From the IMG/VR virus record IMGVR_UViG_3300025018_002313: 49,071 nucleotides of DNA, one strand, 5' to 3'. This stretch comes from a virus. The translations under genes were made by a program, and so were the position numbers. The notes under the pieces were generated by a model. It was not told where the DNA came from, searched no databases, and saw nothing but the letters and a program-made list of their open reading frames with translations. Below are positions 208 through 45,894 of the stretch, piece by piece. The number at the start of each line of letters is the position of its first letter. Position 1 is the stretch's first letter.

Positions 208-348
208 TAACTAAATTTATTTAGATAGTTCACACCGGTCTGCGTGGTAGATGCCACAACGAACTGGATGATAAACTCTCTAATATATTTCTCATATAAA
301 TAATTATGCCTTCAGATAATAAAAAATCAACGTATTTTAAAAATATTT

Positions 349-554: not shown

Positions 555-833
555 CTATTTATCTACTACAATAGTACTTTTTTTAATTCTCGTGGTCTTG
601 GTGCCTGTTAAAAATTCCCATAATGATTTACGCTCTTTAGTATCTTCTAATTTCATATCAATAATTTGGTTCTGTAAATCATTAACTTTATACATTGCTG
701 TTGTTAGATTCTCGTTGGTTCTATTTACTTCTTCTATTAAACTTCTATTAACTATATTCAATTGCGCTATGTCTTTCGACATAGCTTCTAATATACTTTC
801 AATACTCTTTCCTTCAATTTCTATTCTTACCAT
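555..833 (-). CDS. hypothetical coiled-coil protein (92 aa)
   Basis: ORF with heptad-like charged and hydrophobic periodicity. Its start overlaps the stop of the upstream GT2 gene by a few nucleotides, which suggests translational coupling. Confidence 0.5.
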   Translation of the reverse strand: MVRIEIEGKSIESILEAMSKDIAQLNIVNRSLIEEVNRTNENLTTAMYKVNDLQNQIIDMKLEDTKERKSLWEFLTGTKTTRIKKSTIVVDK

Positions 834-5487: not shown

Positions 5488-5958
5488 CTAAATAGTGTAA
5501 TGATTAAATACGCGAATATCTGAATCAGTTGAGCCATCAGAGACCAACCATATTCCAGATGTCTCTCTTTCAATAGAATAATATGTACCAGGCTCTACTA
5601 CCATGCCGTTAGCTGTGATTGCTTGAGCTGTTGTCGCAGAGTAGTATAGATAGATATTATTTGTACTTTTATTATAAATCTCAATCAGTGATGATCTATT
5701 TACAAAAACAAGAGGATAAACAGTTGCTGGAGATGAAATAAACGAATGTACTTCATTTTCGTTTGGTACTTGTGTCTCTACAGTTGCACCACTTAGTGTT
5801 GGTGAGTTTACTTGGTATGTTAATAGTGCATATCTACCACGAGATGCAGATAAAGTTTGCATAGTCATACCAAATCTCTGAAGTTCTTCACTTGTCAAGA
5901 CGGTAAATTTACCACGCTCTGCTTCTGCGCATGCAAACCTAGTATTAAAATTCGGCAT
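5488..5958 (-). CDS. hypothetical protein (156 aa), first gene of the accessory operon
   Basis: ORF with AAAGGAGAAAA SD. It is preceded on the minus strand by the repeated 18-mer promoter-like element and an upstream terminator. Confidence 0.55.
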   Translation of the reverse strand: MPNFNTRFACAEAERGKFTVLTSEELQRFGMTMQTLSASRGRYALLTYQVNSPTLSGATVETQVPNENEVHSFISSPATVYPLVFVNRSSLIEIYNKSTNNIYLYYSATTAQAITANGMVVEPGTYYSIERETSGIWLVSDGSTDSDIRVFNHYTI

Positions 5959-6041
5959 TTTTCTCCTTTCACGAGCTATTTGCTGGCGATTTTTATCGCG
6001 GGAACTTCTCAGTTCCGGGTCTACGACCGGGTACTTGGATC

Positions 6042-6059
6042 TTTTAAATATTTAGTCAA
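6042..6059 (-). promoter_or_regulatory. copy 1 of the exact 18-mer TTTTAAATATTTAGTCAA (minus strand TTGACTAAATATTTAAAA), a promoter-like element
   Basis: Identical 18-mer to 38318..38335. Both copies lie just downstream, in the minus-strand sense, of a terminator and 20-100 nt upstream of a minus-strand start codon. Contains the palindrome TAAATATTTA and a TTGACT hexamer. Confidence 0.5.
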
Positions 6060-6074
6060 CTCAGATACAAAGAA

Positions 6075-6114
6075 CAAAAAAAGCCGATAGATTTTAGGTC
6101 TATCGGCTTTTTTA
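6075..6114. terminator. bidirectional rho-independent terminator
   Basis: Stem AGCCGATAGA / TCTATCGGCT with a 7-nt loop, flanked by AAAAAAA on one side and TTTTTT on the other. Confidence 0.75.
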
Positions 6115-6129
6115 TTGAAATTTTGAATT

Positions 6130-6690
6130 TTATGTAAACTCTGTAATCGTCTTAGCAACAAAAGGATCGGCTTCTAACATGGTTATTCCAAACATAGATG
6201 AACTCCAACCACTTCTATAAAAATAATAATATCCTGTTGTTATGCTTGAATCAGTGAATATGCCAGACCCAATAGAAGTAGGTGCATTTCCTCTAAATAT
6301 TGCACCGTCTGTAAAACTAGAACACAAAACAAATGCACCATCACCAATACTTGTTACAGAACTACCTATTGTTAAAGTACCATCAAATCCAGAACAATTA
6401 GCAAATGCCCCGTAACCAATACTTGTTACAGAATTAGGAATTACCAAAGAACCTGTAAGTCCGGCGCATTCGCTAAATGCAACTTCTCCAATAGTTAATA
6501 AATTAGTTGCACCTGACATATCCAATGAAGTGATATTAGTATCTTGATAAAATGCATAATCATCAATACCAACAACATTATGCCCTGCGCCATCATCAGC
6601 AGGGATTACTACTGCTCCGTCACCTAAATTACTATATCCTGATACATATGCATTTGAGCCATCTATTCTATATATTAATGTTACAGCCAT
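6130..6690 (-). CDS. BspA-type leucine-rich-repeat protein (186 aa)
   Basis: Repeating ~23-residue units such as 'IPNSVTSIGYGAFANCSGFDGTLTIGSSVTSIGDGAFVLCSSF', typical of BspA-like LRR. AAAGGAGAATAAACA-ATG RBS. Immediately downstream of the giant repeat fiber. Confidence 0.6.
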   Translation of the reverse strand: MAVTLIYRIDGSNAYVSGYSNLGDGAVVIPADDGAGHNVVGIDDYAFYQDTNITSLDMSGATNLLTIGEVAFSECAGLTGSLVIPNSVTSIGYGAFANCSGFDGTLTIGSSVTSIGDGAFVLCSSFTDGAIFRGNAPTSIGSGIFTDSSITTGYYYFYRSGWSSSMFGITMLEADPFVAKTITEFT

Positions 6691-6704: not shown

Positions 6705-9700
6705 TTATGCAAATTCAGTTGTTACCCAAGTTTTCCGACCGGTCGTAATATGCCATTGGTCTGGTAACATCAAATCAAGTTTAACAGATGCAAATGGCTG
6801 GCTTCCTGGATCAGCGGAAGGTCCACTATAAATAGATGCACCATATGCAGAATCATCAATTCTTTGTGAATCGCCAGCAACAACAGACAATTTAACCCCT
6901 GTTGTAAACTTGCTGAATGTATAATATGTTCCTAGGTCGTCAAATGTGACATCAGGTAGCACAAATGCAATCGAAGACAATGCATTACTTGAAACACAGA
7001 ATGTTGTGCTTGATTGCGTTACATCGACATTATATGGTGTTGTATCAACTATAACAACCGAAGGTTTAACCCATTTACTACTATTCGATTGAACAGTAGT
7101 AAATGTTGAATTCCAATTACCGGATGAAGCTTGTATCTCTGTTATGTTAGTACTACCAATACCAGTCAAATAAGACCCGTCACCGAAAAATGCGGTTGCG
7201 CTAATATTATTAGCGCTCAACGTTCCTGTACTTATCCACTCTCCGCGAAGTACATTTGGACCGGGTGTTATTACTCCACTGGTTCGACCGAGATGTACCT
7301 GTCCATCATTAATATAAATCGCGTCACCTTTAGCATCATGACTTCCAGGATCAACTGTACCATAATTATCTATAAACAACTGCGGTGATCCTGCTAAATT
7401 TGGAGCACCTCTACCTGCCCAATACCCTACCGCAATAGAGTTATCTGCTGTACTATAAGCTCCAGCCCATGCACCAATATATGTTGATTGAGATATGCCA
7501 GGACCTGCATAATATCCGGCTTGATATCCAAAAACATCAACGTCTTGCCCTGATAATCCTTCTCCAGCCTTATAGCCAACAATAGAATTTGCTGAATCAA
7601 CGACAACAGCATTTAAGAGAGCGTTAGTACCAAAATATTGCCCTTGTACTATATTTGTACCTGTTCGTAAATCATTGCTAACAACAATCTCTTCACTTGC
7701 ATTTGATGAAATAATTGCACCAGACTCAAATTTAATCGAACTATTACCAACATAGATTGTATCTGCACTAAGAACTCTTGTAGTTATGATATCAGCACTA
7801 AGGAATGGAGTAATGATCATATCTGCATTAAGAGTGTCAGCACTTAACCCACCAGTTACATTCCAATCTCCTCTTAATACTCCATTTTCTCCGAGTACAA
7901 CCCCGTTGGCGGCACTAACAGTAAACTGGTCGCTTGTCGTTGATGATACAGCTGCTGTAAATGAACTCCATACGAATGTTCTACTATGAACTGCTTCTGC
8001 ATTTAGACCTGCTGCATGTGATATGGCACCTGAAGCTACTGTACTCGCTCCCTCTGAGTGAGACGTACTACCGGATGCTATCGTAGCTTGGCCTTCTGCA
8101 TGAGCCTGGCTGCTACTGGCGTAATTTCCAACACCTTCGACATGAGATCCCTGACCGGATGCTGTATTCGATTGACCTTCTGCATGGGCATATAGTCCCG
8201 TCGCGTGATTTAAACTACCTTCTACATGTGTATAGTCATTTGTCGCTTCGTTCAATCCACCCTCTGCATGGGCACAGTGTCCTGTTACATTATTTACAAT
8301 ACCTTCTGCGTGTGATCTCCGACCAGTTACAGTGTTCTCTCGTCCCTCTACATGAGAACATAACCCTGTAGATGTAATATTGTTTCTATATCCTTCAGCA
8401 TGAGACCAATCACCAGATGCTAGGTTATAACCGCCTTGTGCGTGAGACATTACCCCTGTTGCAGATACACCAATACCGAATGCGAACGACCCAGAACCTG
8501 AAGCAATCACAGTGTATCCTGAGCTATCAGGAATATAACCACCAGCAAATGCTCCATCTCCTTGCGCTATAATATCAGCTGATACTGATGCATTAAATCC
8601 TTGAGCATGAGAGCCAGGCCCGGATGCTGTTGTTCGGTATCCTTCTGCATGTGATGCTATTGCGATAGCCGAAGTAAAGTGTCCTTCAGTGTGTGATTCG
8701 TTACCGCTTGCTCTTGTTTCATTTCCTTGCGCGTGTGATGCGTTTCCAATAGCTAAAGTACCGTACCCCTCAGCATGAGATTGTTGACCACTTGCTATTG
8801 TTTGCTCTCCTTCTGCATGAGCGTGTATATTGGATGCAAGCGTCAACCAGCCCTCTGCATGTGCATTTGCGCCTGTTGCAGATGTTTGCCATCCTTCAGC
8901 ATGAGCAGCATTACCAGATGCTATTGTACCTCTACCTTCTGCATGCGAGCCGCTTCCGGATGCAAGTGTATTCTCACCAGGTTCAACATACCCCTCCGCA
9001 TGAGATCCGTACCCTGTTGCTGATATAGAAGCGTGTGCGGTAAATGGTGTTGTTAATAGAGCACCCTCCGCATGTGATCCAGCGCCTTGGGCGCCTATTA
9101 CACCGTTGGCTTTAGCATATCCCTCCGCGTGAGATCCTTCACCTCTAGCAATCTTAAATCCATTATTCGCTATGCCACCGGCTGATCCCTCTGCATGTGC
9201 ACCATCACCAGCTGCTATATTTCCATATTCACCACCAGGTACGTATCCCTCTGCATGTGCTCCAATGCCTGTTGCTATATTTCTATGGCCTTCTGCATGT
9301 GATGCGTATCCGTGTGCATAATTAGTAGAGCCCTCTGAGTGAGAATATGAACCATATGCTGTTGTTACTTCACCTTCTGCATGTGAGGCTTCTCCTTGAG
9401 CTATCGTTTGACTTCCTTCAGCATGAGCAGCATTACCAGATGCCAAAGTATAGCCGCCTTGTGCATGTGAAAATAAACCAATAGCAGATGTCGCGTTGCC
9501 CTCTGTATGAGAACCACGTCCTGATGCTACAGTGCTATCGCCCTCCGCGTGTGAATTATATCCTTGTGCTCTAGTTAAAATGCCCTCAGAATGTGCTGCT
9601 GTTAACCCGACAAAAGTGCTATCACCCTCAGCATGTGAGTAGCTCGCGAGACTGGATGCATATGTATTAATACCTTCTGTGTGTGTTGCAATTCCTTGTG

Positions 9701-10799
9701 CATATGTTCCATGTCCCTCTGCATGCGAAGCGATCGACATTGCAGATGTTGATACACCTTCTGTATGTGATATAGATCCCCATGCAAAAGTATTAATACC
9801 TTCTGCATGTGCGTATGATCCGTTAATAGCACGTGAATGATATCCTTCTGCATGTGAGCCGTCACCGCTAGCTATTGTCTCTATACCTTCAGCATGAGCA
9901 TAAAATCCATCAGATGCTATAGTTTCAGCTCCCTCAGCGTGTCCGCCGTTATCTGCTAAAGTTTTCCATCCTTCGGCGTGTGAGCCATACATCTCATCAC
10001 CAATACTTCCAGTACCAGTTGCTACTGCGCTTGTTTGATAACCTTCTGAGTGAGATGCAACACCGTTTGCTATAGTTCCTGAACCTTGTGCGTTGGCAGC
10101 TCTACCTAGCGCTTTTGTATATTCACCAGAAGTAAATGTACTATCACCATCAGCAACGGAAATATAACCTAGATTAACAGGATCAGGCCACGTTTTTTGA
10201 GCAGAAAGACCTGATTCAATTCTAACACCACCATTAAAACGAGCCCAGTTCTCTGACCAAAGACCAACCCCAGAGAGCGTAACTACCGCTTCTGAAGTCG
10301 GATTTATATTAGATGGAGGATCGAGCCGTAAATCAGGACCAGAAACATAGAATCCACTTAGTTCAAATATCTGTAAATCTGTTGTATTAAGAACAGCTGA
10401 AAATGCAAAAAGGTTTGTAGTCCAGATTGAGTGTGCTGTTAGTGCGTGCTTAAAATTAGCATTACCATCAACAAATAACGCAGGATGAGACATATCGGAC
10501 CAGACGATATTTTCGTTACCGAAACTATCGATACCGATATCACCTTCATATGTGGATGGCGCGCTTATGTAGATGCCTACGGTTCCACCAATAGCGCAAA
10601 TTGCTGCATTGTTAGATTGAAAAAGACCTGCGTACGCGGAAAGCGGTGCGAACGCACTCAGCCCCCCTGCTAGACAGAAATCACCCTGAAACGGGTCATT
10701 TGGATGGGCGATTGGATCATAACCGCCATCTGGTTCTCCTGGTTTGTTGTATGTGTGATGATTATGACGATGCCATTTGTTGTGAAAACGATTACTCAA
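6705..10799 (-). CDS. giant tail fiber/adhesin-like protein (1364 aa) with a ~45-50 unit 14-residue repeat array
   Basis: Uninterrupted 4.1 kb ORF with a GAAGGAGGTATTA-ATG RBS. Residues ~249-937 are tandem 'SHAEGxxTxASGxx' units. N-terminus is His-rich ('HNKWHRHNHHT'). C-terminal ~430 aa is non-repetitive and Gly/Ser/Thr-rich. Confidence 0.8.
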   Translation of the reverse strand: MSNRFHNKWHRHNHHTYNKPGEPDGGYDPIAHPNDPFQGDFCLAGGLSAFAPLSAYAGLFQSNNAAICAIGGTVGIYISAPSTYEGDIGIDSFGNENIVWSDMSHPALFVDGNANFKHALTAHSIWTTNLFAFSAVLNTTDLQIFELSGFYVSGPDLRLDPPSNINPTSEAVVTLSGVGLWSENWARFNGGVRIESGLSAQKTWPDPVNLGYISVADGDSTFTSGEYTKALGRAANAQGSGTIANGVASHSEGYQTSAVATGTGSIGDEMYGSHAEGWKTLADNGGHAEGAETIASDGFYAHAEGIETIASGDGSHAEGYHSRAINGSYAHAEGINTFAWGSISHTEGVSTSAMSIASHAEGHGTYAQGIATHTEGINTYASSLASYSHAEGDSTFVGLTAAHSEGILTRAQGYNSHAEGDSTVASGRGSHTEGNATSAIGLFSHAQGGYTLASGNAAHAEGSQTIAQGEASHAEGEVTTAYGSYSHSEGSTNYAHGYASHAEGHRNIATGIGAHAEGYVPGGEYGNIAAGDGAHAEGSAGGIANNGFKIARGEGSHAEGYAKANGVIGAQGAGSHAEGALLTTPFTAHASISATGYGSHAEGYVEPGENTLASGSGSHAEGRGTIASGNAAHAEGWQTSATGANAHAEGWLTLASNIHAHAEGEQTIASGQQSHAEGYGTLAIGNASHAQGNETRASGNESHTEGHFTSAIAIASHAEGYRTTASGPGSHAQGFNASVSADIIAQGDGAFAGGYIPDSSGYTVIASGSGSFAFGIGVSATGVMSHAQGGYNLASGDWSHAEGYRNNITSTGLCSHVEGRENTVTGRRSHAEGIVNNVTGHCAHAEGGLNEATNDYTHVEGSLNHATGLYAHAEGQSNTASGQGSHVEGVGNYASSSQAHAEGQATIASGSTSHSEGASTVASGAISHAAGLNAEAVHSRTFVWSSFTAAVSSTTSDQFTVSAANGVVLGENGVLRGDWNVTGGLSADTLNADMIITPFLSADIITTRVLSADTIYVGNSSIKFESGAIISSNASEEIVVSNDLRTGTNIVQGQYFGTNALLNAVVVDSANSIVGYKAGEGLSGQDVDVFGYQAGYYAGPGISQSTYIGAWAGAYSTADNSIAVGYWAGRGAPNLAGSPQLFIDNYGTVDPGSHDAKGDAIYINDGQVHLGRTSGVITPGPNVLRGEWISTGTLSANNISATAFFGDGSYLTGIGSTNITEIQASSGNWNSTFTTVQSNSSKWVKPSVVIVDTTPYNVDVTQSSTTFCVSSNALSSIAFVLPDVTFDDLGTYYTFSKFTTGVKLSVVAGDSQRIDDSAYGASIYSGPSADPGSQPFASVKLDLMLPDQWHITTGRKTWVTTEFA
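7990..10055 (-). repeat. 42-nt periodic coding tandem repeat array (degenerate) inside the fiber gene
   Basis: Plus-strand blocks such as cc(t/c)tctgcatg(t/a)ga recur every ~42 nt. They translate to SHAEG on the minus strand. Confidence 0.75.
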
Positions 10800-10863: not shown

Positions 10864-10878
10864 TTAAATATTTATACA
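10864..10878 (-). promoter_or_regulatory. T4-late-type promoter (minus strand TTGTATAAATATTTA), copy 1 of an exact 15-mer
   Basis: Plus-strand taaatatttatacaa is the reverse complement of TTGTATAAATATTTA, which contains the T4 late -10 consensus TATAAATA. It lies ~70 nt upstream of the fiber ATG. The identical 15-mer recurs upstream of gp25 (33878..33892). Confidence 0.6.
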
Positions 10879-11014
10879 ACTGAGGTCAAATTATGAGTCT
10901 TCTCGCCAATATAATCGTCCGTTAGATCCTAGACCGAATCTAACTGTTATTAGTTTACCGTTTATAGGTAGCTGTTTACTTTTATCACTCCACTGAATAG
11001 TTGGTTTAAAAGCG

Positions 11015-11371: not shown

Positions 11372-14300
11372 GCATATAATTTATCAAAACAACGATTAAT
11401 TGCATCAGCAGTTACTATTTCATTTATACCAACATATATTTGATTTTTTGTGTACGGTAGTAATTTATATTCCTGTGGTGTAAACGTTCTAACAGTTGGT
11501 ACTGGTATATCATTTATAACATCGTATGTAAACCGTCCAATAATAGATCGTCTAAATACCTCTAAGTTATCCCAGTATCTTGCAAAACTACGATTTATTA
11601 CCCAATCTTGATTATACTCATTTGGCTCTATATGAATAGAAGACATCGGCCACAAACTGGTTACATCAGTTCTCAAGTTGATAATATCGAGCTTATCCAC
11701 ATACTTAACGATAGCATTAGTTGACACAATGTAAAGATTTCTATTTAAGTCGTGATAGCAACTCTTATAATCACCGCCATATTCGGTCGCAAATATACCA
11801 ATAATTACACCATCAAACGTAACTTTTAATATACTTTGATCTGTGCATAGATATAAAAATCCACCATCTCTACAAATAGTAAGTCTCTTTGCTGTCTCGT
11901 TCTCTAGCTGTGGCAACTTGAATCCATCGATATAGTTAAAACTACTGTCGAATTTGTATATACCTGTCTGTGTTAATACATAAATGTTGTTGTCGACATC
12001 CAATGCAGTACTAATAGGCTTATTCTTACTATTAAATATGTCTGATTTAAAAGTGCCTAGCCAAGTACCTGTTCTTGCATATTTCTTAATACATAGATTA
12101 TTGTAATCTGTTACCCATATCTGATTTTTGTCAGTAACTAATAAATCTGTAGGATCATAAAACTTATTTTTAGAATTAGCACCGCCAAGGCCGCCCCACG
12201 AGTACATCAATCTCCATCTATCTAGTTCAAAATCATAATTAAAAACAAGCACCCGATACTTACCGGAGTCTAAAATATATATTCTCTGATCAGTGTCAAA
12301 ATCTGCATCCAAATCAATTGCTTGTACATTGATAAAATCATCACCTATACCTTTGAATGTTCGTTCCGCTATTTCCGTGGCAAACATATCCGAGGATAAT
12401 ATTTTAACACTTGTTTTATTCGAGACGAAATGAATATTATCTCCTATGCCGTTTACACTTCGAACAACACAATCAGTCAAGTTGTTAAAATACCCAGATT
12501 CTGCTTGCAGAGGTAAATCATAACCAAGATTAATTCCTGGCTGATCAACACGCCAATGGAAGAATCCAGAAACACCATCATACATGGTACCAAGCCATCC
12601 ATAATACGTTGTAGGAGGTGCATCATACAGTTTTGATTTATCCGATAAATAGGTAACATTCTCTTCAAGATTATTAAACGACTTATTTATATTCCAGTCA
12701 GTTATCCATTCATTCGCCGGCACTCTACATTGATCAATACGATTCGGTAACACAAGTCTGGAGGCTTCGTATACTCGCTCAATATTCGGATCAAATAATT
12801 CAAACTGATTTACAACATTTACAACATTATTAAACACTACAGTCTCATCTGAAGATAATCCATATCCTGTGTATGTAGTTTTTAAAGATATATCATAATC
12901 CCCGGGATTTGTAAACACTGTTATGTATGGGCTCTTAGTAGATGATATCCATGTATTTCCTCTATCTGTCCATGTATATTTCTGTATAAGATTAAACACC
13001 GGAAGAACATTCTCAAACGCAACCAGTTCACCGGTAACAGTATATAAGTTAGAAGTGTATATTGCCGGCTTTAATGGGTAGGCTGTTGCAGTTGAATATG
13101 TAGTACTAAGATTGATTGGCTGTATACACCAAGCTGAAAACGGTGCAGTTAGATCGACCGGTGATATTAATGCAATTACATTTGACTCAATATTAAACAC
13201 TGTTGGAGAGTACTGACTTACTGTTTCTAATCTTTCACCTTCGCTGCTTACAGTAAAAGAAATAGTTTTCGGTAGTATAGCTGTTGTATATGTTTCACTC
13301 CATTGATATGTACTTACTCCCCATGTTGATGTTAGTGCCTGATTTATTTCGATTGGAACAGAAACAGAAAATACCGGGCCAATATCTAACACTAAATTAT
13401 GTGCATTAACACCAAATGGATTATATGATATAACTGTATTCGAAGTTGATAGATAATCAAACATACTCACCATCTTTATAGGCTGCTTAACGTTTGATTT
13501 ATCAATATCAGTTGTAGTAAAATTCTTATATAATACAGGCAGTCCAGTTGTATCATCGTAATGATAATTAGGCATATCTATGGGTAGATCGGGATTAACA
13601 AGTTTACATGATACACTATGTGTTTCAGTTGCAGATGTCGATTGTACGGCTACGCTTACTAGGTTTGATGTTTCTCCGAACGGATATGGTGTAACATCTT
13701 CCACATACCATATGTATGATGCGTCAGTCTCTGGATGTGCACTAAGTGTAAATATTTCTGTGTGGCAATAACCCCACGCACACGGTCCAGGTGTAATACT
13801 CTGATTGCATAAAACTGGTACAAAAGTTTCTGATACATCATCCCATTTATATTCTGGATAAATTGCAAAATCTACTGCTGGAAAATCTGAGAGTATGTTT
13901 ATAGTTTTTGTATCACCTACCTTTGTTATTGGTGTAGGCCATGTGGATGCAGATATACTATCGCCGCATATTTGAATTGTGTATGTTGAATATCCATTTG
14001 GCACTTCATGGGTAAAACTAGTAAACCCAACAGGCTGTGCAGATACATCTCCATTACTAAAAACAAATTTTAAATTTCCTGTAGCGTCAGTTGGTGCTGT
14101 TGTATGATTATGAATTGTTATTACCCACGGAAATACTAATTCATTTTGATCTCTGTATAGAATATGTGTTGAGCTAAGTTCGTTATTAACACTGAATGCA
14201 GGGTAAAATAGAGAATCACTGACCCACTCACTAACATCAAAAATAATATCATAATCGAGTATTAATGAAGAGTCAACAGACTCTACGGCAGATACTGTAA

Positions 14301-15966: not shown

Positions 15967-18747
15967 TTATTCCCAAACAATTGTATATAGCTCAGTATGT
16001 AAAGGAGCTATCTTCTTTACTGTATCTTTAATAATGTCCTCAATAACCCATCTTAGAGATTGATCTTGAATATTTAACCCTGTGAGCTTTATCTTATAGT
16101 ATTGTGATTTCTTTCCTGGTAATTTATATTTAAAAAATCGCTCAATTTCTTCCAAATACGACTGCAAACCAGTGGGCATATTCCAAGCAATATCTCTGTA
16201 GTCATATTTTAACAAAAAGATATGCGTTAAATCTGAAACAGTTAATGGATAATTATAGATCCGAAAATCATCAATACCTCCTGTAAAATGTAGTTTATCA
16301 TAAAATAACTCTGTACCAAGTGAGTTTATAGCGCCTGCATCTGCGCCAATGAAAATATTATTTTCATAGTTATAATACATATACGTTGACGGTGAGATAG
16401 TAATCGAATCGCGTAAAACAGTATCTATAAAATATTTGAACTTTCCTGTTTTAAACTCGTACGTCATCGCAAAGTGATGCCAATCATTATTATTTAATGA
16501 GCATGCCGGAAAGGCTAATGTTTTTTCTCCGCAGACTGGAATTTTCAAAGTACCAAAAAAGGCTTTTGTTTGTATGGCTGGAATACCATCTATTGGTATA
16601 TAGTTATATTTTCTGTTCCAGTCATAATTAGTATAATTCCTATTATACGGTGCTATATTAAATATGCTTGTGTTCTTTACTTTTTTAAGGGCTAAATCGG
16701 TATTATATTTGTGTATTTTTTGGCCTTGCTCTGATAAAAACCATATATAATCTTCGTAGTCCTCAATAGTATTATTATATTCGTTTGTTAAGCTTATATT
16801 ACTTAATGGATATTCTACATCCAGATGACCTGATAGCGCAACAGACCCATTTACAACTTTAAACCAATTATTTGAATAATCAACAACCCAGTAGTTATTG
16901 CTCTTATCACAAGCAATACTCTGAATATCAACACCTGTTAGCTGTGGTACTGTATAGCTGCTATAACTCCACAGTCCACTAAGAACTGCATATACAGCTG
17001 TATTATTGTTATCATAGAAAACATCCTGACATTTAAATGCATATGGTTGACCATTTAAGTCTACAGCTAGTTTATTAAACGATTCACCAGAAGGATAAAT
17101 ATACTCTGTTAGTTCTTCATAAGCAACATCCCCGGGCTTTTTCCACTTTAAAACACAATAACCGTTGGTTGAATTATTATAATGTCTTACAAGAAGTGGG
17201 TGCACTCCTTCTGTTAGATTTATTCCACATAGAACACCCCCTTGAGTAACAAATGCACTATATGCGCTTGGTCCAATATAAGCAATTGCTTTATCATCTG
17301 CTTGCAGAAAAAAGTTATATAATCCATCTGCTGGTACGTGTAATTCTGCAGACCATATAGATGCATAAAATTGCTTATTAAGACCAGGTACGAATGGATA
17401 ACTTACGTTATTTCTGGAGTAGCTAGTGGTATTGATATTATCATACAGACGGCCAAATACATATTTTGATTCGTCTGGAAATAAGGATGATGCAGTAGGT
17501 TGATAAATTTTTACTGCAACGCCTTTTCGACGCCCTGTAAAATTCCCGAGAGTATCAAATGATGATATATTATTTGTGCTTGAGTCTAAGACCCACACAT
17601 TACTTTTATGATCTAGTTTTATATCTGATAGATTAACATCAGGTGAAAATTCAACAAACGGATCGATATTACTATCTTTATCTATTTTATATAAATGTTT
17701 CTTTCCATTATATAGTCCGTTATCTATAACCCATACATATAAGTCCTTATCAATTGCACAATTAATTGCATTTGAAGTACCGGGCAGTGTTAGTGTGTAT
17801 AATGCTTTGAGATCAGCGTTACAGTCTAATAATACACCTGCGCTGCTAAAAACTGTAATTGTTGGATTATAGAACCCATTATTATAATAGAAGCTCCATC
17901 CACCGCGATAATCATGACTGATAAGCGACCGACCCTTTACTCTACTCCAATCTACTGCTTTTGCCCAGAATGCAATAGTCATATCTGTGCTTATATCAAA
18001 AGAAGGGTTAAATAGAACTTCCACTTCTTGATTTGTTTCCACGAATAGTGATGTATCTTTAATACGTGTTTTATTTACACTAGTAGGATATGTCATTTTA
18101 GAAGTATCGCCTTGTGTAATAATTGTATTCTTAAATGAAGATTTATCGGTTATAGGTAACTCCCAGTCGTCAATGTGAACTCTAAGACCACTCATAGATC
18201 CGCTTAGTGATGTTACAATCCCCTTGTTAAAATTGTTTCCCATGTGGTGATATCTATACCATACACCTGGCATTAGTAACATCGTCGACGGTGTATCATA
18301 CACTGCGGATGCACTCTTTACAAATAAAGCTGTATTTGAATCAATATACCCTGGATCATAGAAGCGATCTATCCAAATTGCTGATGATGCCCCTTGTAGC
18401 GAATTACCAGATAGCCATGAACATAGCCATGTGCCGTGCTGAGGGGTAGATGAGTCACCCCACCAGGTATTCTTTTTATAGTCTGCTACCTTCTGCCATA
18501 TCTTATCTGATCTAAACGGAATTTCACCTGGTGTTGCTCCGCATTCTACAAGCCCCGATGCTGATAAAGGAACTATATTTGCTGAATTGGGATAATGAAA
18601 GTATGTGGTTTTATCTGTAGTAAATATTTGTTCAGCAGTATCTGACTCGAAACCGAGAAATGGTGTTAAATGTCCAAATTCTTGATTTGATCCAGTAAAG
18701 ATTTGTTCATACTCTCTTAAATAAACTGAGCTAGGCTGTAATATCAT
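15967..18747 (-). CDS. structural protein with LamG/ConA-like lectin and PA14-like carbohydrate-binding segments (926 aa)
   Basis: 'TIAFWAKAVDWSRVKGRSLISHDYRGGWSFYYNNG' is LamG-like. 'DGLYNFFLQADDKAIAYIG' matches the PA14 'G-x-Y-x-F-x3-DDG-x-x-i-g' signature. Confidence 0.65.
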   Translation of the reverse strand: MILQPSSVYLREYEQIFTGSNQEFGHLTPFLGFESDTAEQIFTTDKTTYFHYPNSANIVPLSASGLVECGATPGEIPFRSDKIWQKVADYKKNTWWGDSSTPQHGTWLCSWLSGNSLQGASSAIWIDRFYDPGYIDSNTALFVKSASAVYDTPSTMLLMPGVWYRYHHMGNNFNKGIVTSLSGSMSGLRVHIDDWELPITDKSSFKNTIITQGDTSKMTYPTSVNKTRIKDTSLFVETNQEVEVLFNPSFDISTDMTIAFWAKAVDWSRVKGRSLISHDYRGGWSFYYNNGFYNPTITVFSSAGVLLDCNADLKALYTLTLPGTSNAINCAIDKDLYVWVIDNGLYNGKKHLYKIDKDSNIDPFVEFSPDVNLSDIKLDHKSNVWVLDSSTNNISSFDTLGNFTGRRKGVAVKIYQPTASSLFPDESKYVFGRLYDNINTTSYSRNNVSYPFVPGLNKQFYASIWSAELHVPADGLYNFFLQADDKAIAYIGPSAYSAFVTQGGVLCGINLTEGVHPLLVRHYNNSTNGYCVLKWKKPGDVAYEELTEYIYPSGESFNKLAVDLNGQPYAFKCQDVFYDNNNTAVYAVLSGLWSYSSYTVPQLTGVDIQSIACDKSNNYWVVDYSNNWFKVVNGSVALSGHLDVEYPLSNISLTNEYNNTIEDYEDYIWFLSEQGQKIHKYNTDLALKKVKNTSIFNIAPYNRNYTNYDWNRKYNYIPIDGIPAIQTKAFFGTLKIPVCGEKTLAFPACSLNNNDWHHFAMTYEFKTGKFKYFIDTVLRDSITISPSTYMYYNYENNIFIGADAGAINSLGTELFYDKLHFTGGIDDFRIYNYPLTVSDLTHIFLLKYDYRDIAWNMPTGLQSYLEEIERFFKYKLPGKKSQYYKIKLTGLNIQDQSLRWVIEDIIKDTVKKIAPLHTELYTIVWE

Positions 18748-22600: not shown

Positions 22601-23612
22601 TTGGCCTAGAGTATAGCCACCCTGAAGAAGAATTAATTAATTTAAATATACCTGTTCGGTTACCTCTATGTACTCCATAGTAAATATTAGAATCATTAAG
22701 CGAAGGTACTAACCCGTATATTTGACCACCGACAGTTTTTAGTAGAATTCCATTACTATTACCATCTGGAACTCCGATAGGACAAGAGAATACCTTACCA
22801 TCTGTTGTAAATGTTCCAACGATTGCATTACCCGAGGATTTATCAATAGCAATACCTTGTCCATATCGATCATCTGTACCTGTCCTATAGACATTCTTTA
22901 ATCGGCCTGTTCTTAAGCTGCAACAATATGCTTCACCTACAGCGCCGCCTCGATCTCTATTGGTTATCCAAGCATGCCCACCTATACCATCTGGCCCACC
23001 GTGATTTTCTATGTCTTGATATATACGATTAATGTCAACCGCTGTTCTTGAAACTTTGCTAGGTATACCGCCGGCGGCTGTTCGCAATTTCGTTTGCCAT
23101 ATTCGTTGACCTTCATGGAGTAAGATATTGTGCTTTACCTGATTTTTTGTTGACATACATTGTGCAAGACCCTCTCCAGTATGAGATGTAATAACGTATG
23201 GTGCAGTATCAAACACTCCACCTTGAACATAAGATTGTAGGATATAATATATTGGTCTTCTTGAATAGTACACATCATATAATAACTCTTGATCAGTTGC
23301 AACCTCACTAGTTAATCCGTATAAGGTTCTAAGAGGTGTTGTAATTGCAGTTCCGTTATAGAAACCGGACATGTCATCCGTCATTGAGGTAATAGTTGGT
23401 ACGTCTGTAGTGTTTAAAATTACATATGAGTCCGATAATACTACATCATTAGATGATTCTCCTAATGATCCAATCCATCGAAACACTTTTACTCTAGTGA
23501 AAGGAATTGATGGTTCGAACGACCACTCTAATGAGAATTCATGTGGAGAACTCCCATCCGGTCTGGCTTGGATTACGTCTGGTGAAATATTTGTAAATTG
23601 TGCAAAACTCAT
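19695..23612 (-). CDS. giant structural protein (1305 aa) with two C-terminal PKD-like domains and NHL-like repeats
   Basis: PKD signatures 'HWDFGDYYNE...HTYTMPGTYDVTLCV' and 'DWDWGDGTPTE...HTFTNTNVIPATFSVTLSVYA'. 'YGQGIAIDKSSGNAIV' resembles NHL/beta-propeller blades. Confidence 0.7.
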   Translation of the reverse strand: MSFAQFTNISPDVIQARPDGSSPHEFSLEWSFEPSIPFTRVKVFRWIGSLGESSNDVVLSDSYVILNTTDVPTITSMTDDMSGFYNGTAITTPLRTLYGLTSEVATDQELLYDVYYSRRPIYYILQSYVQGGVFDTAPYVITSHTGEGLAQCMSTKNQVKHNILLHEGQRIWQTKLRTAAGGIPSKVSRTAVDINRIYQDIENHGGPDGIGGHAWITNRDRGGAVGEAYCCSLRTGRLKNVYRTGTDDRYGQGIAIDKSSGNAIVGTFTTDGKVFSCPIGVPDGNSNGILLKTVGGQIYGLVPSLNDSNIYYGVHRGNRTGIFKLINSSSGWLYSRPINSGEEYGIVSGPDGAVFFSHIFTANLGAYEPLTNTWDSSKLIWTGTYKDTSGANRGVATDSDTLYPHAGNDRYQIYNAKTGADTLRIATRTKSTGEVVENAQIPISFRIYGVAPDSENNIWITGHGLAKYYKMEQNSLYPYGGECRWPSVTLDEWLPSFTNTKEVEWFLTRDASVMTASAYTDWCSLTGDAYEVISGINGSVSYKFGTKVSRNTIADAITAIQDWAETHSTEIDNISGIRIYPNYTAPNTLKYFSTNVLQADRGAQAANTSYMYSDFTGSLLIGSIGELPASLDYVHPETTPPDCSLIISQGRQSSPLEETEPYMWNEEIFNNQQTSVSAYDDLFITLSGHTNPGSFIMTGWNFYMDDHKSDYGNLIPNIVTELHKVNQSYDLDGTYITDVITNPAKTYHDTTKVGLPQTRTTDSRLVSGNFESRVVITSNIDPYTLQSISTTSNITSSTIMERWPEARLWVEPYEVSATRIEWFDCPLSFKPPIRFKKSVGYVNDNPYEQFNIAYGTDPLSADFWDRTIARTYPIETWSMGICTSNVYMSALQNWDPIDSTVFSYMTTWSWSTTDATRLPADTINSIIRGGLSNIATYNFWRYGYYAVSLFVTASTSNTHSGDASGRQQTFTQFLCVREFEPFANFWATSAFTVSSTYSDETNIVDINTLLTDAQPPVQLPTTDRDFVSGYAPNLTVWFTDSSEPHTFPISSYHWDFGDYYNEHSMTQLVTADIITRGNFDRGCWKTNQTNHSVVHTYTMPGTYDVTLCVQASNTSTPDCCARYVNESIQPFYVYVAEIYPDCCFEIRSPLSGVSPHTINFLASCVTPGSFPICRLDWDWGDGTPTESISRFPYPTASNLNQVLTSVSAFPYDPNDPRNYLISHTFTNTNVIPATFSVTLSVYACNTNSASICIGQSVGPIIYPYDVIEPRHLIKSRYQNSNNDVVYILEGEELNSMYTVVLSGEK

Positions 23613-23647
23613 TTTATATATTTATTCTCTAACATTGCTTTTCAATG

Positions 23648-31534: not shown

Positions 31535-33366
31535 TAATATTCAATCGCTTCATAAATTGTTGTCTCAGCTTTAACTACTATCTTCTCAGTAAAATGCTCT
31601 TTATTATCTAAATATGGAAATTTGAAATATTCCAGTGAAACATTTTTCGTAGTTAAAACTCTATCAGTTGGATAAATTGGATTCCATAGTAACATTGATA
31701 AACCATTATATCTAACATTTGGATTATCTTTACGACGAGTATAAAAGGTTTTTATCCCGTCTACACTTAGTATATTATTTGTTAATGTATTTAAATCAAG
31801 TTCTTGACCGAGTGAGATATTATCTCTCGAGAAGTACTCTGTAAATACATCTGCAACATCAAGAGCTATAGAGTTTGTATCTCGTCTTGAATTTGGACTC
31901 TTAACGATATATAGTTCTGTATTTCCAGTATCTTCGAGTGTACCGTTTGCGGATCCATCTAGTGTAATACAAACATTTGTTGCAATATAGACAGGATCTA
32001 AAACGATAGACTCCGATGTAAGAGTCTTTAGAGACCGTAGACCAGATATAATTAACTCTTTCTGAGCCGGGGTTAAGTTTGTAGTTGGATTCTTTGTTTG
32101 TGATATGGTCTTTGGAACAATAACAAAATATACATTATTGAAATTACAACCATCTACAAACAATACCTGGTTATACAATAAATTCGAAACATTATTTGGA
32201 TCTTTTAATCCAATATCATTATAATAGTATTTTACCTGCTCTTGTAGATACGTCCAGTTATTTACAACCGCAACATCATGAATAAGGTTTGCAAAATTTA
32301 TACGAATATAGTTTGAATAATCTTGTTCCGTAATTAATCTATATTGAGAACGGAAACCGCCTGGTGCATTTTGCTTAATCGATTCGATAGATTCCTCTGC
32401 TTGATAGTAGGTTGAAATATTTGTGTTGTCAAAATAGATATCTTTTGCTTGCTGTGTGTTAATAAAAATAATGTTAGTAGATGTTTGCTGGTTAATACTG
32501 TTGATTATTTGATTGAATGTAGTTGTTGAGAACGGGATGATGTTACGTCCACGAATGGAACCAACCCCTACTTCGCCTTCAGCACCATTTGATTGTAAGT
32601 AATAAATTGCAACTCTATCATTTGTATTTAATTTTCTTCCGTTGATACCGTTACCAAACTTAATTTCATATTGTTTGTTTTCGTTAAATCTTATTTCATA
32701 CCCGTTACTAAATGCATCTTCATTATATAGTGACTGCACTCTAGACCACTGTAGCCAATTACCGTTGCTGTAAACATAGACATCAATATTAAAATGGTCT
32801 ACAATGACGTTATCTCCGAGGGTGAAAAATATAATCTCATTATCATTACCAGCGGCGGAATAAATTGGATACTCACGATATCTGCCCTGGTATAGTAATT
32901 TCTGCTTTGTAATGTTTATAAGATTTTCAGTTGCGCCTAATGGCTGTGTTTTTGCAAAAACTATATCTTCATTAAAAGTATATGTTTTTGTTCCGTTTTC
33001 AATATACGAATAACGTGGAATAGTATATAGACCTTCACCGAAAGTTGTGCCTGCCGTCATACCAAATGTTAATGTTGATGTCTGGCGGCCTATTGGCTTG
33101 TAATCAAGAAGTTTTACAATACGATTCATTGCATCATATAGTGTTGTTTCAGAGAACTCTGAATTCGTAGCTGTTTGATTCAGATAATAAAGTAAGGTAT
33201 TGAATGCGTACGCAATTATTTCGTTTATAGTTGAAATATATGAACCTTCATAGTTCTGATCCGTAAAAATATTAGTCTCGTTTAAACGATCCTTGATATA
33301 TTGTTTTAGCGTTAAAGCATCAAAAGATAGATATCCATCTTTTGGTATATTAAATTCTGTTGACAT
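31534..33366 (-). CDS. gp6: baseplate wedge protein gp6-like (Baseplate_J family), 610 aa
   Basis: Follows gp25 as in T4-like phages. The N-terminal region ('YEGSYISTINEIIAYAFNTLLYYLNQTATN...LYDAMNRIVKLLDYKPIGRQTS') parallels T4 gp6 ('FEGSRLNVLCDLLAYNTLYIQQFGNAA...FMRTANLRSSVVQAAQDNGYLP') as recalled. Confidence 0.65.
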   Translation of the reverse strand: MSTEFNIPKDGYLSFDALTLKQYIKDRLNETNIFTDQNYEGSYISTINEIIAYAFNTLLYYLNQTATNSEFSETTLYDAMNRIVKLLDYKPIGRQTSTLTFGMTAGTTFGEGLYTIPRYSYIENGTKTYTFNEDIVFAKTQPLGATENLINITKQKLLYQGRYREYPIYSAAGNDNEIIFFTLGDNVIVDHFNIDVYVYSNGNWLQWSRVQSLYNEDAFSNGYEIRFNENKQYEIKFGNGINGRKLNTNDRVAIYYLQSNGAEGEVGVGSIRGRNIIPFSTTTFNQIINSINQQTSTNIIFINTQQAKDIYFDNTNISTYYQAEESIESIKQNAPGGFRSQYRLITEQDYSNYIRINFANLIHDVAVVNNWTYLQEQVKYYYNDIGLKDPNNVSNLLYNQVLFVDGCNFNNVYFVIVPKTISQTKNPTTNLTPAQKELIISGLRSLKTLTSESIVLDPVYIATNVCITLDGSANGTLEDTGNTELYIVKSPNSRRDTNSIALDVADVFTEYFSRDNISLGQELDLNTLTNNILSVDGIKTFYTRRKDNPNVRYNGLSMLLWNPIYPTDRVLTTKNVSLEYFKFPYLDNKEHFTEKIVVKAETTIYEAIEY

Positions 33367-33381
33367 TATCTATCGTACTCC

Positions 33382-33858
33382 TTAAAATACAAATCCATCT
33401 TTTGTTAATAAACCTTCTAAGCCAACTGGCTCCGTTAGAAGTGGACTACCTACATTTAGTGTTATCACGTATTCGTTCCGATCTTCATATCCAACTATAT
33501 CGAGATTTAATACGCGCACTCTTGACTCCCATTTTCTAATTGCATCACTGATCTCTCTGCCAATTTGTCTCGATAATGTTTCTGTTACAGGCTCAAAAAC
33601 ATATCGTCTTATATCAGAGCCGTACTCAGGTATTAGAAATCGTTCGCCTGGTATCGTATTAAACAAATTCTTTAGAGAATTCCTAATTGCGTTCAAATCA
33701 TATGCAACTTTAATATCTCGACCATTTCCAATAGTACTTTGGAAATTCGCAGCGGAGCCGATTGGATCTTCTGCAAAATCTAAATAAAAATCAACATAAC
33801 TATAATTATCCTCGTTAGTACTTGTATCTTGTAGTGTGTTAAAATTAATAGAGCTCAT
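33382..33858 (-). CDS. gp25: baseplate wedge protein gp25-like (GPW/gp25 lysozyme-like fold)
   Basis: 158 aa with 'LKNLFNTIPGERFLIPEYGSDIRRYVFEP', the GPW_gp25 signature. First gene downstream of the TATAAATA box. Confidence 0.8.
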   Translation of the reverse strand: MSSINFNTLQDTSTNEDNYSYVDFYLDFAEDPIGSAANFQSTIGNGRDIKVAYDLNAIRNSLKNLFNTIPGERFLIPEYGSDIRRYVFEPVTETLSRQIGREISDAIRKWESRVRVLNLDIVGYEDRNEYVITLNVGSPLLTEPVGLEGLLTKDGFVF

Positions 33859-33877
33859 TTTTATTCCTTAAGTAACA

Positions 33878-33892
33878 TAAATATTTATACAA
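33878..33892 (-). promoter_or_regulatory. T4-late-type promoter (minus strand TTGTATAAATATTTA), copy 2 of the exact 15-mer, heading the baseplate operon
   Basis: TATAAATA lies ~24 nt upstream of the gp25 ATG, in a divergent intergenic region. Confidence 0.65.
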
Positions 33893-33915: not shown

Positions 33916-34197
33916 ATGGGCATTTTTAATGAGAATGATTTAATATTTGAAAACTATAGAAAAAGTATAGTTGAAAACGGGTATTCATTTCCGGTAACAC
34001 ACAACCCTCGAGCGTATATTGGCGGTAGTATGGTAGAAGAAATAGAATACATCAGGGAAACGATAGTTCCTCTAATCAAATCTGGCAATATTATAGATGC
34101 TCTTAAATTATTTCGTACTATTCCCGGACATCAATACGATGACGAAAGAGAAATGAAAGTTTACGTAGATAAAATTACCAGTCCAGCTTTTCTATAA
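33916..34197 (+). CDS. hypothetical protein (93 aa), plus-strand
   Basis: ORF starting 58 nt from the divergent gp25 start. Its N-terminal 'NENDLIFENYRKSIVENG' motif recurs inside the next protein. Confidence 0.45.
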   Translation: MGIFNENDLIFENYRKSIVENGYSFPVTHNPRAYIGGSMVEEIEYIRETIVPLIKSGNIIDALKLFRTIPGHQYDDEREMKVYVDKITSPAFL

Positions 34198-34200
34198 ATA
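34193..34200 (+). promoter_or_regulatory. T4-late-type TATAAATA box (plus strand)
   Basis: TATAAATA, then AGGAG, then ATG at 34216. Spacing of 15 nt to the start codon. Confidence 0.55.
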
Positions 34201-34215
34201 GTAATAGGAGTAAAT

Positions 34216-35109
34216 ATGAAAAATTTTAGCAGCAATTTTACACAGATTTGTGAAGAAACATTATATCGCTATAACCAAGGTGGTTTTTTACGCGGTGATT
34301 ATGTAACTATTAAAAAGGACGCCCTTAAAAATGATAAGATTGAGAAATTATCAGATCCCATGAAAGCTCTTTTAGAAGATGCAATAAAGAAGAATACAAG
34401 ATTTCGTATTAGTTATATTAAATCAGGTAGATCCGAGGCGCCTAGTGGTCCAGTTGATGCACCGAACATTCCTAGCTGTGCCTGGGCAGATGTTGTAATG
34501 GAATATGCACCGGGCATGTGGAAGGAGCCTATGACTCTTCCTCTTGAAGTTCTTGAGAAGGTAGAACTTGAAGGGGAGATGGATGGCTATCCGCAGTATT
34601 CTGATGAAATTAAAAGAGAAAATGATTACAGCACTAAGGGTGCATCACCAGTGGATCAAACGATGGGGGAAGATTCCAATAGAAAGTTAGCTAGTAAAAA
34701 CACAAAGCTAGCAAATACAAAAAATCCGACACCTGGTGATAAAAAGACTAAAGTACGTGAATCCGTTAATATGCGCCATGAAAATGAGGTTATATTCGAA
34801 TCATATACTAATTCGCTCGAAGAAGGTATCGTTGACTGGGCGGCGGATAAAGCTAAACAAGTAAATGATAATATATCCCAGGGCATAGATATTCGTGCAT
34901 CACTCAATAATCCAGAAAAACTAGCAAATGCATTCTCACAACTTAAACAACAAGATCCAGAAAAACTAAAAGTGACAATTAAAAAACTGCTTGATCAAGG
35001 ATACGATGAACAAGTTACTGCTGCATTTGACTTCCAGGAAGATATAAATCAAGCCATGGGTGATGAGTCAGATAACTGGCATAATGATACAAGCAGTTAT
35101 ATGAATTAA
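34216..35109 (+). CDS. hypothetical highly charged protein (297 aa), plus-strand
   Basis: ORF with AGGAG SD. Lys/Glu/Asp-rich. Contains the internal motif 'HENEVIFESYTNSLEEGIVD' paralogous to the N-terminus of the preceding ORF. Convergent 4-nt overlap with the gp44 stop. Confidence 0.55.
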   Translation: MKNFSSNFTQICEETLYRYNQGGFLRGDYVTIKKDALKNDKIEKLSDPMKALLEDAIKKNTRFRISYIKSGRSEAPSGPVDAPNIPSCAWADVVMEYAPGMWKEPMTLPLEVLEKVELEGEMDGYPQYSDEIKRENDYSTKGASPVDQTMGEDSNRKLASKNTKLANTKNPTPGDKKTKVRESVNMRHENEVIFESYTNSLEEGIVDWAADKAKQVNDNISQGIDIRASLNNPEKLANAFSQLKQQDPEKLKVTIKKLLDQGYDEQVTAAFDFQEDINQAMGDESDNWHNDTSSYMN

Positions 35110-36982: not shown

Positions 36983-37055
36983 ATATCCTCCTTCTATACA
37001 TAATTTAAGAATAACATACATACAGAAAAAATCAACGGGATCTCCAGAAGCCTCT

Positions 37056-37063
37056 TATAAATA
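37056..37063 (+). promoter_or_regulatory. TATAAATA box abutting the 37070 ORF (plus strand), part of TATAAATATTTAAAATG
   Basis: Exact T4 late -10 consensus only 6 nt upstream of the ATG. This implies either a leaderless transcript or use of the downstream Mets (residues 24 and 26, preceded by GGTGGG). Confidence 0.4.
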
Positions 37064-37069
37064 TTTAAA

Positions 37070-37800: not shown

Positions 37801-38298
37801 TTATATTTGACCTTGTTCGTACAACCGTGAATGCTCTTCAATGGAATCCCACTGATGCCATTTTGTACCAATCGCGGTAAGAGAATCAATAGAACTCGTC
37901 CATATTCCGTTAATCATTGTACCGGATGCAGCAGATGGTCCTCCAAATAGAGAAGTACCAGTTGATGATACGCTTACTACAACGTCTGTTACAAGAGTTT
38001 CCACATGTGCTACAGTATTATCTACTATAATGTAGAACCATAAAGCTTCTGGTGTTGCATTCACACCGTCCCATGTAATCTCATAGGGTAATGTTGCAGC
38101 ACCAGACAGTGCAATACTAAATCCTGGTAATGTTTGGTTACCGGATATAGAAATACTGTCAATATTAAGTGCGGAAATACCTAATACTGGTGAAAAGGTG
38201 TGTGGGTATGTTGATGCTAGTACAACTAGTGTATCACCATTCGCAACCTCTTTATCTAAATCAAAAATCGTTGTTACTGTATAATTATTATCTGCCAT
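37801..38298 (-). CDS. hypothetical virion-associated protein (165 aa)
   Basis: GGAGGAATTTGAA-ATG RBS. Directly downstream of the second 18-mer promoter-like element and a terminator. Ser/Thr/Gly-rich beta-type composition. Confidence 0.55.
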   Translation of the reverse strand: MADNNYTVTTIFDLDKEVANGDTLVVLASTYPHTFSPVLGISALNIDSISISGNQTLPGFSIALSGAATLPYEITWDGVNATPEALWFYIIVDNTVAHVETLVTDVVVSVSSTGTSLFGGPSAASGTMINGIWTSSIDSLTAIGTKWHQWDSIEEHSRLYEQGQI

Positions 38299-38317: not shown

Positions 38318-38335
38318 TTTTAAATATTTAGTCAA
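38318..38335 (-). promoter_or_regulatory. copy 2 of the exact 18-mer TTTTAAATATTTAGTCAA (minus strand TTGACTAAATATTTAAAA)
   Basis: Identical to 6042..6059. Lies 20 nt upstream of the 38298 start and immediately downstream of the terminator at 38342..38377. Confidence 0.5.
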
Positions 38336-38341
38336 AGTTAG

Positions 38342-38377
38342 AAAGAAAAAAACCCGGCTCTATAAAGAACCGGGTTT
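38342..38377 (-). terminator. rho-independent terminator closing the capsid transcription unit
   Basis: Minus-strand read: AAACCCGG-(loop)-CCGGGTTT followed by TTTTTTTCTTTC. Confidence 0.75.
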
Positions 38378-38394
38378 CTGTAAATAATCGCTTA

Positions 38395-41298: not shown

Positions 41299-41345
41299 AG
41301 AATACTCCTATATTTTTAAATACTTATGGTTCTTAAGAGATATTT

Positions 41346-42538: not shown

Positions 42539-42627
42539 TTAAAATATTTAAAAATTCTTCAAAATTATTATCTAGAACTAAACAAAAGTTATATCCAGCA
42601 TCTATTTCTACAGAAATATGTCCCCAC

Positions 42628-45807: not shown

Positions 45808-45894
45808 AACTCTCTTTCTTATTAACTGTTATTGTTGTGTATCTTCTTGAAGTATTTAGTTAAACAGTGCTTAAATCGTGTATTTGTGTTTCTC

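Follow-up and report, generated by a model that had tools for sequence, protein, structure and literature searches.

The late promoters of phage T4 consist of an 8-bp box, TATAAATA, at -13 to -6, followed by A/T-rich DNA and without a -35 element (PMC2988020, PMC1524935), and the box is read by gp55 together with gp33 and the gp45 sliding clamp (PMC2988020). The late promoter of the Aeromonas phage Aeh1 reads CTAAATA from -12, with a/gC at -13/-12 (PMC1524935, PMC2988020). Recognition that is confined to the -10 region and does not need a -35 is also a property of the extended -10 promoters of sigma70 (TGnTATAAT), a likeness noted in PMC2988020. Here, an 18-mer that occurs twice in the DNA of an uncultured T4-like phage is compared with these systems. 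With high probability, each copy is a T4-type late promoter that restarts transcription past a terminator, which is an expected regulatory signal; this reading is based on motif identity, position, orientation, conservation and spacing.

The phage and the analysed window

The window (the whole stretch of DNA that was analysed, 49,071 nucleotides) is the end of NCBI contig CACVDO010000001.1 (GCA_902729865.1, 236,277 bp), which ends 6 nt past window position 49071, within a tail-fibre-like gene; the same DNA recurs in several metagenome assemblies. With few exceptions, the genes of the window are encoded by the minus strand. For the capsid protein (38701-40188), a homologue of gp23, identity to cyanophage gp23 is 32-34%; it has no closer cultured relative in the phage collection searched and is encoded by 80 IMG/VR loci at 62-89% identity. 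Homologues of the gp21 protease, the gp22 scaffold, a head-closure protein, gp13, the gp25 and gp6 baseplate wedge proteins, the gp44 clamp loader and a dUTPase were also found, and the very large tail-like proteins of the window gave no family match. The window is the late/structural region of a large (236 kb), uncultured, distant T4-like phage.

Promoters of the sigma70 type were seen at 147-175 on the minus strand (TTGATC-17-TATAAT, ahead of the tRNA-Leu(TAA)), at 35131-35158 on the minus strand (TTGAAA-16-TATAAT, 11/12, at the 3' end of the clamp-loader gene and antisense into plus-strand genes) and at 33360-33388 on the plus strand (TTGACA-17-TAAAAT, 11/12, antisense to the gp25-like gene). 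Together with the heavy use of AGGAG, they point to a host with classical promoters and Shine-Dalgarno (SD) sequences.

Sequence and surroundings of the two copies

An exact search of the 49-kb window located TTTTAAATATTTAGTCAA at 6042-6059 and 38318-38335, with no other exact copy; on the coding (minus) strand both copies read TTGACTAAATATTTAAAA, and their identity ends at both edges of the 18-mer. The closest further match, at 13182-13199, has 3 mismatches (expected count at 3 or fewer mismatches, 0.30). The features around the two copies are as follows.

6042..6059, minus strand: copy 1, putative late promoter, ACTAAATA box at 6049-6056 (about -13 to -6), TTTAA at -5 to -1, predicted start near 6043
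38318..38335, minus strand: copy 2, putative late promoter, ACTAAATA box at 38325-38332, predicted start near 38319
6077..6113, minus strand: intrinsic terminator, 15-pair stem and T run, ending 17 nt before copy 1
38348..38379, minus strand: intrinsic terminator, 14-pair stem and T run, ending 12 nt before copy 2
5488..5958, minus strand: first gene of the copy 1 unit, 156 aa, function not assigned
37801..38298, minus strand: first gene of the copy 2 unit, 165 aa, conserved just after the capsid gene in relatives
5959..6043, minus strand: predicted structured 5' leader, 85 nt, of a transcript starting at copy 1

The terminator at 6077..6113 closes the upstream transcription unit (LRR-protein gene 6130-6690), and that at 38348..38379 comes after the capsid gene and a 77-aa gene (38395-38628); the hairpin-then-promoter layout after the capsid gene is the same in relatives. 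Copy 1 is 83 nt from the ATG at 5958 (SD region AAAGGAGAAAAATG) and copy 2 is 19 nt from the ATG at 38298 (SD region TAGGAGGAATTTGAAATG). The initial annotation was right about the exact repeat itself, about the strong terminators just upstream in the minus-strand sense and about the SD-preceded start codons downstream. Downstream of 5488..5958 the copy 1 unit continues with a cupin, a 131-aa protein, an S8 peptidase, a 634-aa protein and a glycosyltransferase.

The 18-mer is the longest dispersed exact repeat of the window, and the next motif-related repeat, the 15-mer TTGTATAAATATTTA at 10865 and 33878, belongs to the same motif family. The initial annotation had held that an 18-nt repeat is not expected by chance. 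On length alone this is marginal: of 200 random sequences that matched the window in length and composition (first-order Markov), 12 had an exact direct repeat of at least 18 nt, so that the repeat by itself has p ~0.06, and the significance of the 18-mer comes from its context and its motif family. These random sequences are what favours a coincidence between two A/T-rich spacers; against it, both copies share their orientation and their terminator-to-gene context, the motif family was recovered independently in relatives, and control hexamers of the same composition gave no comparable signal, which speaks against an artefact of A/T-richness. Coincidence is thus given hardly any weight.

The predicted leader at 5959-6043 folds with a minimum free energy of -21.8 kcal/mol (z = -3.69) into three to four hairpins, and differs from that of the relative L092 at 2 positions, as compared with about 6 synonymous-looking differences in the next 60 coding nucleotides. 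It matched no Rfam family: searches of the whole window, and of 5900-6130 at a relaxed threshold, returned the tRNA only, with the sub-threshold matches all on the terminator hairpin. Nor did any GenBank phage match the 4 kb around copy 1 by megablast.

In L092 (2568-2900), where the site orthologous to copy 1 reads CTAAGTATTTAAAA, nucleotide homology sets in precisely with base 1 of the 18-mer (window 6059), and the LRR_5 (BspA-type) gene 6130-6690 and its terminator are missing, so that the promoter marks the edge of a gene-plus-terminator indel. T4-type phages have mobile promoter/stem-loop cassettes (PeSL), in which early promoters are involved. The present arrangement resembles PeSL in having a stem-loop beside a short conserved promoter at a module boundary and differs from it in that a late promoter follows a terminator; since a single breakpoint was seen, no mobility is claimed. 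The 18-mer has 18 exact matches in IMG/VR, about half of which are coding (LTKYLK) in unrelated contigs; evidence of a mobile element did not come from this search. A promoter-like context was seen for the matches in L103 (3656-3673), L106 (2088-2105), L107 (3-20), L096, L108 and L109; 1 of these follows a terminator-like hairpin (223-kb contig), 2 abut an ATG and 3 are located 12 nt before an ATG. A literature search with the sequence strings returned primer matches only.

Motif family in the window and in relatives

The 18-mer belongs to the motif family (N)(A/C)TAAATA-TTTA(AAA), which ranks above all other non-SD motifs ahead of the genes of the window and of about 12 metagenomic relatives. 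In unbiased 7-mer counts over 116 gene-oriented upstream regions, ATAAATA was observed 41 times (4.2 expected) and ranked, together with TAAATAT, first after SD words; expectation maximization from random seeds, performed on the relatives only, converged repeatedly on ATAAATATTTA. The late-box matrix is written as NATAAATATTTA. At the four positions after the box T, T, T and A predominate in the relatives, and TTTAAAA follows the box in both copies of the 18-mer. In 84 spacers between co-oriented genes, ATAAATA occurred 37 times in sense and 3 times in antisense orientation, and the extended motif TAAATATTTAAA 10 times in sense and never in antisense.

The spot syntenic to copy 2 (after the capsid gene, a small gene and a terminator) carries (N)(A/C)TAAATATTTAAAA in five relatives, with the sequences gCTAAATATTTAAAA (L001), CATAAATATTTAAAA (L004, L009), TATAAATATTTAAAA (L007) and CAATAAATATTTAAAA (L010/L014), each followed by an SD and an ATG. 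Of the 18 bases common to the two copies, 13 (TAAATATTTAAAA) make up the clade-wide consensus. The C at -12, a tolerated variant, recurs at the sites of L001 and L092 that are orthologous.

Within the window, TTGNNTAAATATTTA has four exact matches (0.51 expected at 1 or fewer mismatches), all on the coding strand and all intergenic upstream of genes: the two copies of the 18-mer (TTGAC...) and the two copies of TTGTATAAATATTTA at 10865-10879 and 33878-33892. Scored with the matrix from relatives only, copy 1 reached 14.0 bits and the window contained 9 hits of at least 14 bits, as compared with 0.65 in shuffles, most of them 12-96 nt upstream of a co-oriented start. The perfect T4 box TATAAATA is present at four window sites. 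The candidate late promoters other than the 18-mers are as follows.

10865..10879, minus strand: TTGTATAAATATTTA with a perfect T4 box TATAAATA at 10869-10876, 14.7 bits, 69 nt upstream of the gene of a 1364-aa repeat protein (6705-10799)
33876..33892, both strands: palindromic putative late promoter in a 57-nt divergent spacer, 17.2 and 13.8 bits; TATAAATA on the minus strand faces the gp25-like gene 33382-33858, CATAAATA on the plus strand faces 33916-34197
34193..34200, plus strand: TATAAATA box, 15.2 bits, 15 nt before the ATG of 34216-35109
37056..37063, plus strand: TATAAATA box, with a predicted start 1 nt before the ATG of the SD-less gene 37070-37567; candidate leaderless mRNA
41321..41328, minus strand: CATAAGTA-TTTAAAA variant, 11.2 bits, upstream of the genes for a 54-aa protein, the scaffold and the capsid
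42545..42552, minus strand: TTTAAATA box, 6 nt before the ATG of the SD-less head-closure-like gene 42095-42538; candidate leaderless mRNA
45853..45860, minus strand: third intergenic ACTAAATA box, 11.1 bits, 45 nt upstream of gene 45295-45807
556..563, minus strand: GATAAATA box, 15.7 bits, 15 nt upstream of gene 349-540

Apparent counterparts of the site at 41321..41328 in relatives carry TAAATATTTAAAA, with orthology judged by position only. In the gene of the 1364-aa protein, diverged repeats of 42 nt (14 aa) form a long array at 7990-10100, which is locally GC-rich (0.47), and the protein matches phrog_25468 eight times. The plus-strand ORF 37070-37567 (165 aa) competes with minus-strand ORFs at 36994-37212 and 37234-37503, but is preferred to them on account of the public gene call and the late box; the minus-strand translations resemble hydrophobic artefacts of low complexity.

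A third, related copy had been named at 211-224 (minus strand CTAAATAAATTTAG). This site was rejected: it shares with the 18-mer only the CTAAATA heptamer, of which the window has 15 occurrences, it is not among the top 30 sites of the matrix from relatives, and it is located directly before the terminator 208-180, so that a transcript begun there would be terminated. The tRNA has a sigma70-like TTGATC-17-TATAAT of its own at 175-147. Better additional copies, overlooked in the initial annotation, are those at 10865-10879 and 33878-33892, both of which contain the perfect T4 box TATAAATA.

The alternative suggestion of the initial annotation, a binding site for a dimeric regulator, would make the palindrome TAAATATTTA an operator for a phage or host DNA-binding protein and the likeness to a promoter secondary. 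TAAATATTTA is indeed perfectly palindromic over 10 bp and occurs six times in the window, and T4 DsbA binds A/T-rich sites that overlap late promoters, though weakly (PMC2988020). Conservation is asymmetric, however, with 71-96% in the left half and 52-74% in the right half; TAAATA is kept and the right half broken in L002 (...TATTAT), L003 (...TATTGA) and L013 (...TAGTTA), and the conserved flanks, with NA to the left and AAA to the right, lack mirror symmetry. Moreover, the extended motif is strictly directional, and the distance from motif to ATG varies between 5 and 90 nt. An operator is considered very improbable, and the palindrome appears to be a by-product of a sequence of which the left half alone is well conserved.

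Bases upstream of the box

The late-promoter reading places a TTG at -16 to -14, and this is common to the four full sites (6057-6059, 10877-10879, 33890-33892 and 38333-38335). Taking the two 18-mers as the pattern, the chance of finding it at the other two sites is roughly estimated at ~3e-4. It was not seen in relatives, in which there is no information upstream of -13. The TTG may be a genome-specific promoter extension or a coincidence.

In the 18-mer the TTG is part of a TTGACT hexamer, to which the initial annotation had drawn attention and which differs from the TTGACA of a host sigma70/sigmaA-type -35 at one of six positions; the phage does have sigma70-like promoters elsewhere, such as that ahead of the tRNA. 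No -10-like hexamer is found 16-18 nt downstream of TTGACT in either copy, the hexamers 17 nt downstream being AAGTAC and AGGAGG, so that TTGACT does not serve as a -35. Neither 18-mer site came up in the sigma70 scans, and the orthologous sites in L001, L004, L007, L009, L010 and L092 lack TTGAC. A host promoter of this type can practically be dismissed, and with it the -35 role of the hexamer.

The sites bear some likeness to the extended -10 class: the TG of the TTG falls at about -15/-14, the position of the TG in extended -10 promoters, which is our own inference and an analogy only. They differ from that class in having no TATAAT hexamer and in that the TTG is not conserved in relatives. 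To our knowledge, gp55-type sigmas lack the sigma domain that reads TG.

Spacing between box and start codon

In more distant relatives (many sites in L015-L080; first ATG, ORFs of at least 80 codons), TAAATA-N5-ATG and TAAATA-N6-ATG were counted at 42 and 35 starts, respectively, as compared with 1-15 at other spacings up to 12 nt, and of 15 hexamers with equal composition none but TAAATA and its one-base shifts showed this peak. An SD was present at 0-1% of these starts, as compared with 23-48% overall. In the window, TAAATA-N5/N6-ATG occurs at the following positions.

37056-37072, plus strand
42536-42552, minus strand
23610-23626, minus strand

With the box at -13 to -6 as in T4, this spacing puts the A of the ATG at +1 or +2 and would give leaderless late mRNAs, which suggests that many late mRNAs of this wider T4-like clade may be leaderless. 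A literature search on leaderless late transcripts in T4-like phages returned nothing relevant. The peak at N5/N6 also gives indirect support to a start about 6 nt past the box, as predicted for the two copies of the 18-mer.

The same spacing can be read as the mark of a signal in RNA, that is a processing site or an A/U-rich translation enhancer in read-through transcripts, with TAAATA at SD-less genes acting as a ribosome-recruiting A/U element; the orientation bias by itself cannot tell a promoter from such a signal and fits it equally well. Both copies of the 18-mer are located past strong terminators, however, so that little read-through RNA should contain them, and the starts that they precede by 19 and 83 nt have strong SDs of their own. 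In addition, the motif is the experimentally defined late box of T4, in a phage with T4 core genes. A signal in RNA is therefore judged improbable, though less so than an operator.

At divergent gene pairs, the palindrome (T/C)ATAAATATTTAT(A/G) forms a late box on both strands in a spacer of about 50 nt, as seen in the window at 33876-33892 and 37056-37069, in L004 near 17100-17162 and in L013 near 7665-7720. The divergent arrangement of 33876..33892 is conserved in these two relatives, L004 and L013, which implies putative overlapping bidirectional late promoters at divergent gene pairs.

Comparison with described late promoters

The proposal that the 18-mer is a phage promoter in which CTAAATA is a variant of the late -10 consensus is supported by synteny, motif discovery, orientation bias and spacing and by the promoters described for T4 and Aeh1 (PMC2988020, PMC1524935). 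The box ACTAAATA agrees with the T4 box at 6 of its 8 positions, and at sister sites the box is a perfect TATAAATA. As in T4, an 8-bp box is located about one helical turn upstream of the (here predicted) start and is directly followed by an A/T-rich segment, which is TTTAAAA at both copies, and such sites stand upstream of late/virion genes, on either strand and often after terminators. Both copies are upstream of and co-oriented with genes of a phage that has T4 core late genes, the lateness of the copy 1 cupin/peptidase unit being assumed. In contrast to T4, the 18-mers have AC instead of TA at -13/-12, the TTTA(AAA) of the window motif is far more conserved than the general A/T preference of T4, and the TTG recurs at four window sites.

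With the C for A at -12 and a purine at -13, the core ACTAAATA equals an Aeh1-type box. This C is the rule in Aeh1; here it is a minority variant (3 of about 12 candidate sites in the window, 1 of 39 sites in relatives) that coexists with TATAAATA and CATAAATA, and the two phages are only distantly related.

Some observations run counter to the reading. The cupin, S8 peptidase and glycosyltransferase genes of copy 1 do not belong to the classic virion genes, the sites of relatives rarely have a C at -12, and the TTG of the four sites has no counterpart in the T4 model, in which there is no upstream element. Taken together, the 18-mer is not a new kind of element; it works like a late promoter of the T4 family and very probably is one.

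In the proposed mechanism, the upstream unit would stop at the strong intrinsic terminator and the promoter would restart late transcription for the next unit. In TTG-ACTAAATA-TTTAAAA, the 8-bp late box would occupy about -13 to -6, the A/T-rich segment beyond it would melt on promoter opening, and transcription would begin at the A about 6 nt beyond the box, near 6043 and 38319. With T4 as the analogy, the reader of the box would be the host RNA polymerase core with a phage gp55-type sigma, aided by a sliding clamp. Copy 2 could let the expression level of the capsid gene differ from that of the genes behind it. The start sites, the late timing and the gp55 dependence are inferred.

Searches were performed for the proteins of such a system. 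T4 gp55 used as a tblastn query found no gp55 in the window, about 8 kb beyond it or the relatives' loci, and two weak matches were discarded as a large tail-like protein and a helicase-like ORF; a gp55 HMM found none among 5,567 ORFs of all loci. No homologue of gp55, gp33 or gp45 was seen in this 49-kb genome end and about 8 kb beyond, where a PHROG scan of the 8 kb past the tRNA gave an HNH endonuclease and a phosphoesterase only; the gp44 clamp loader gene is present in the window. Searches for gp55 homologues, first with T4 gp55 and then with a profile of the hits most remote from it, were dominated by other T4-like groups and yielded nothing but Tevenvirinae-like proteins and a second gp55 group, which we take to be that of marine T4-likes.

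A more far-reaching possibility, which we put forward tentatively and consider rather unlikely, is that this clade of ~230 kb phages uses an extended late promoter, (TTG)-NATAAATA-TTTAAAA, in which the TTG at -16 to -14 would be an extra determinant read by a diverged gp55, the palindromic core would fire both ways at divergent pairs, and a distance of 5-6 nt from the ATG would make the late mRNAs of many SD-less genes leaderless, none of which is described for T4. If this were true, the signal would have its strongest and fully extended form in the two identical 18-mers.

Nothing new about transcription follows from the repeat as such; of more interest are the spacing of the leaderless type, the palindromic sites with a box on both strands and the structured leader, which is conserved. 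The analysis provides a working late-promoter model with predicted starts for an uncultured clade of large T4-like phages, which helps to split their genomes into transcription units and to spot late genes among unassigned ORFs, and it extends the late-promoter logic of T4, a bare -10-type box with no -35, to very distant relatives.
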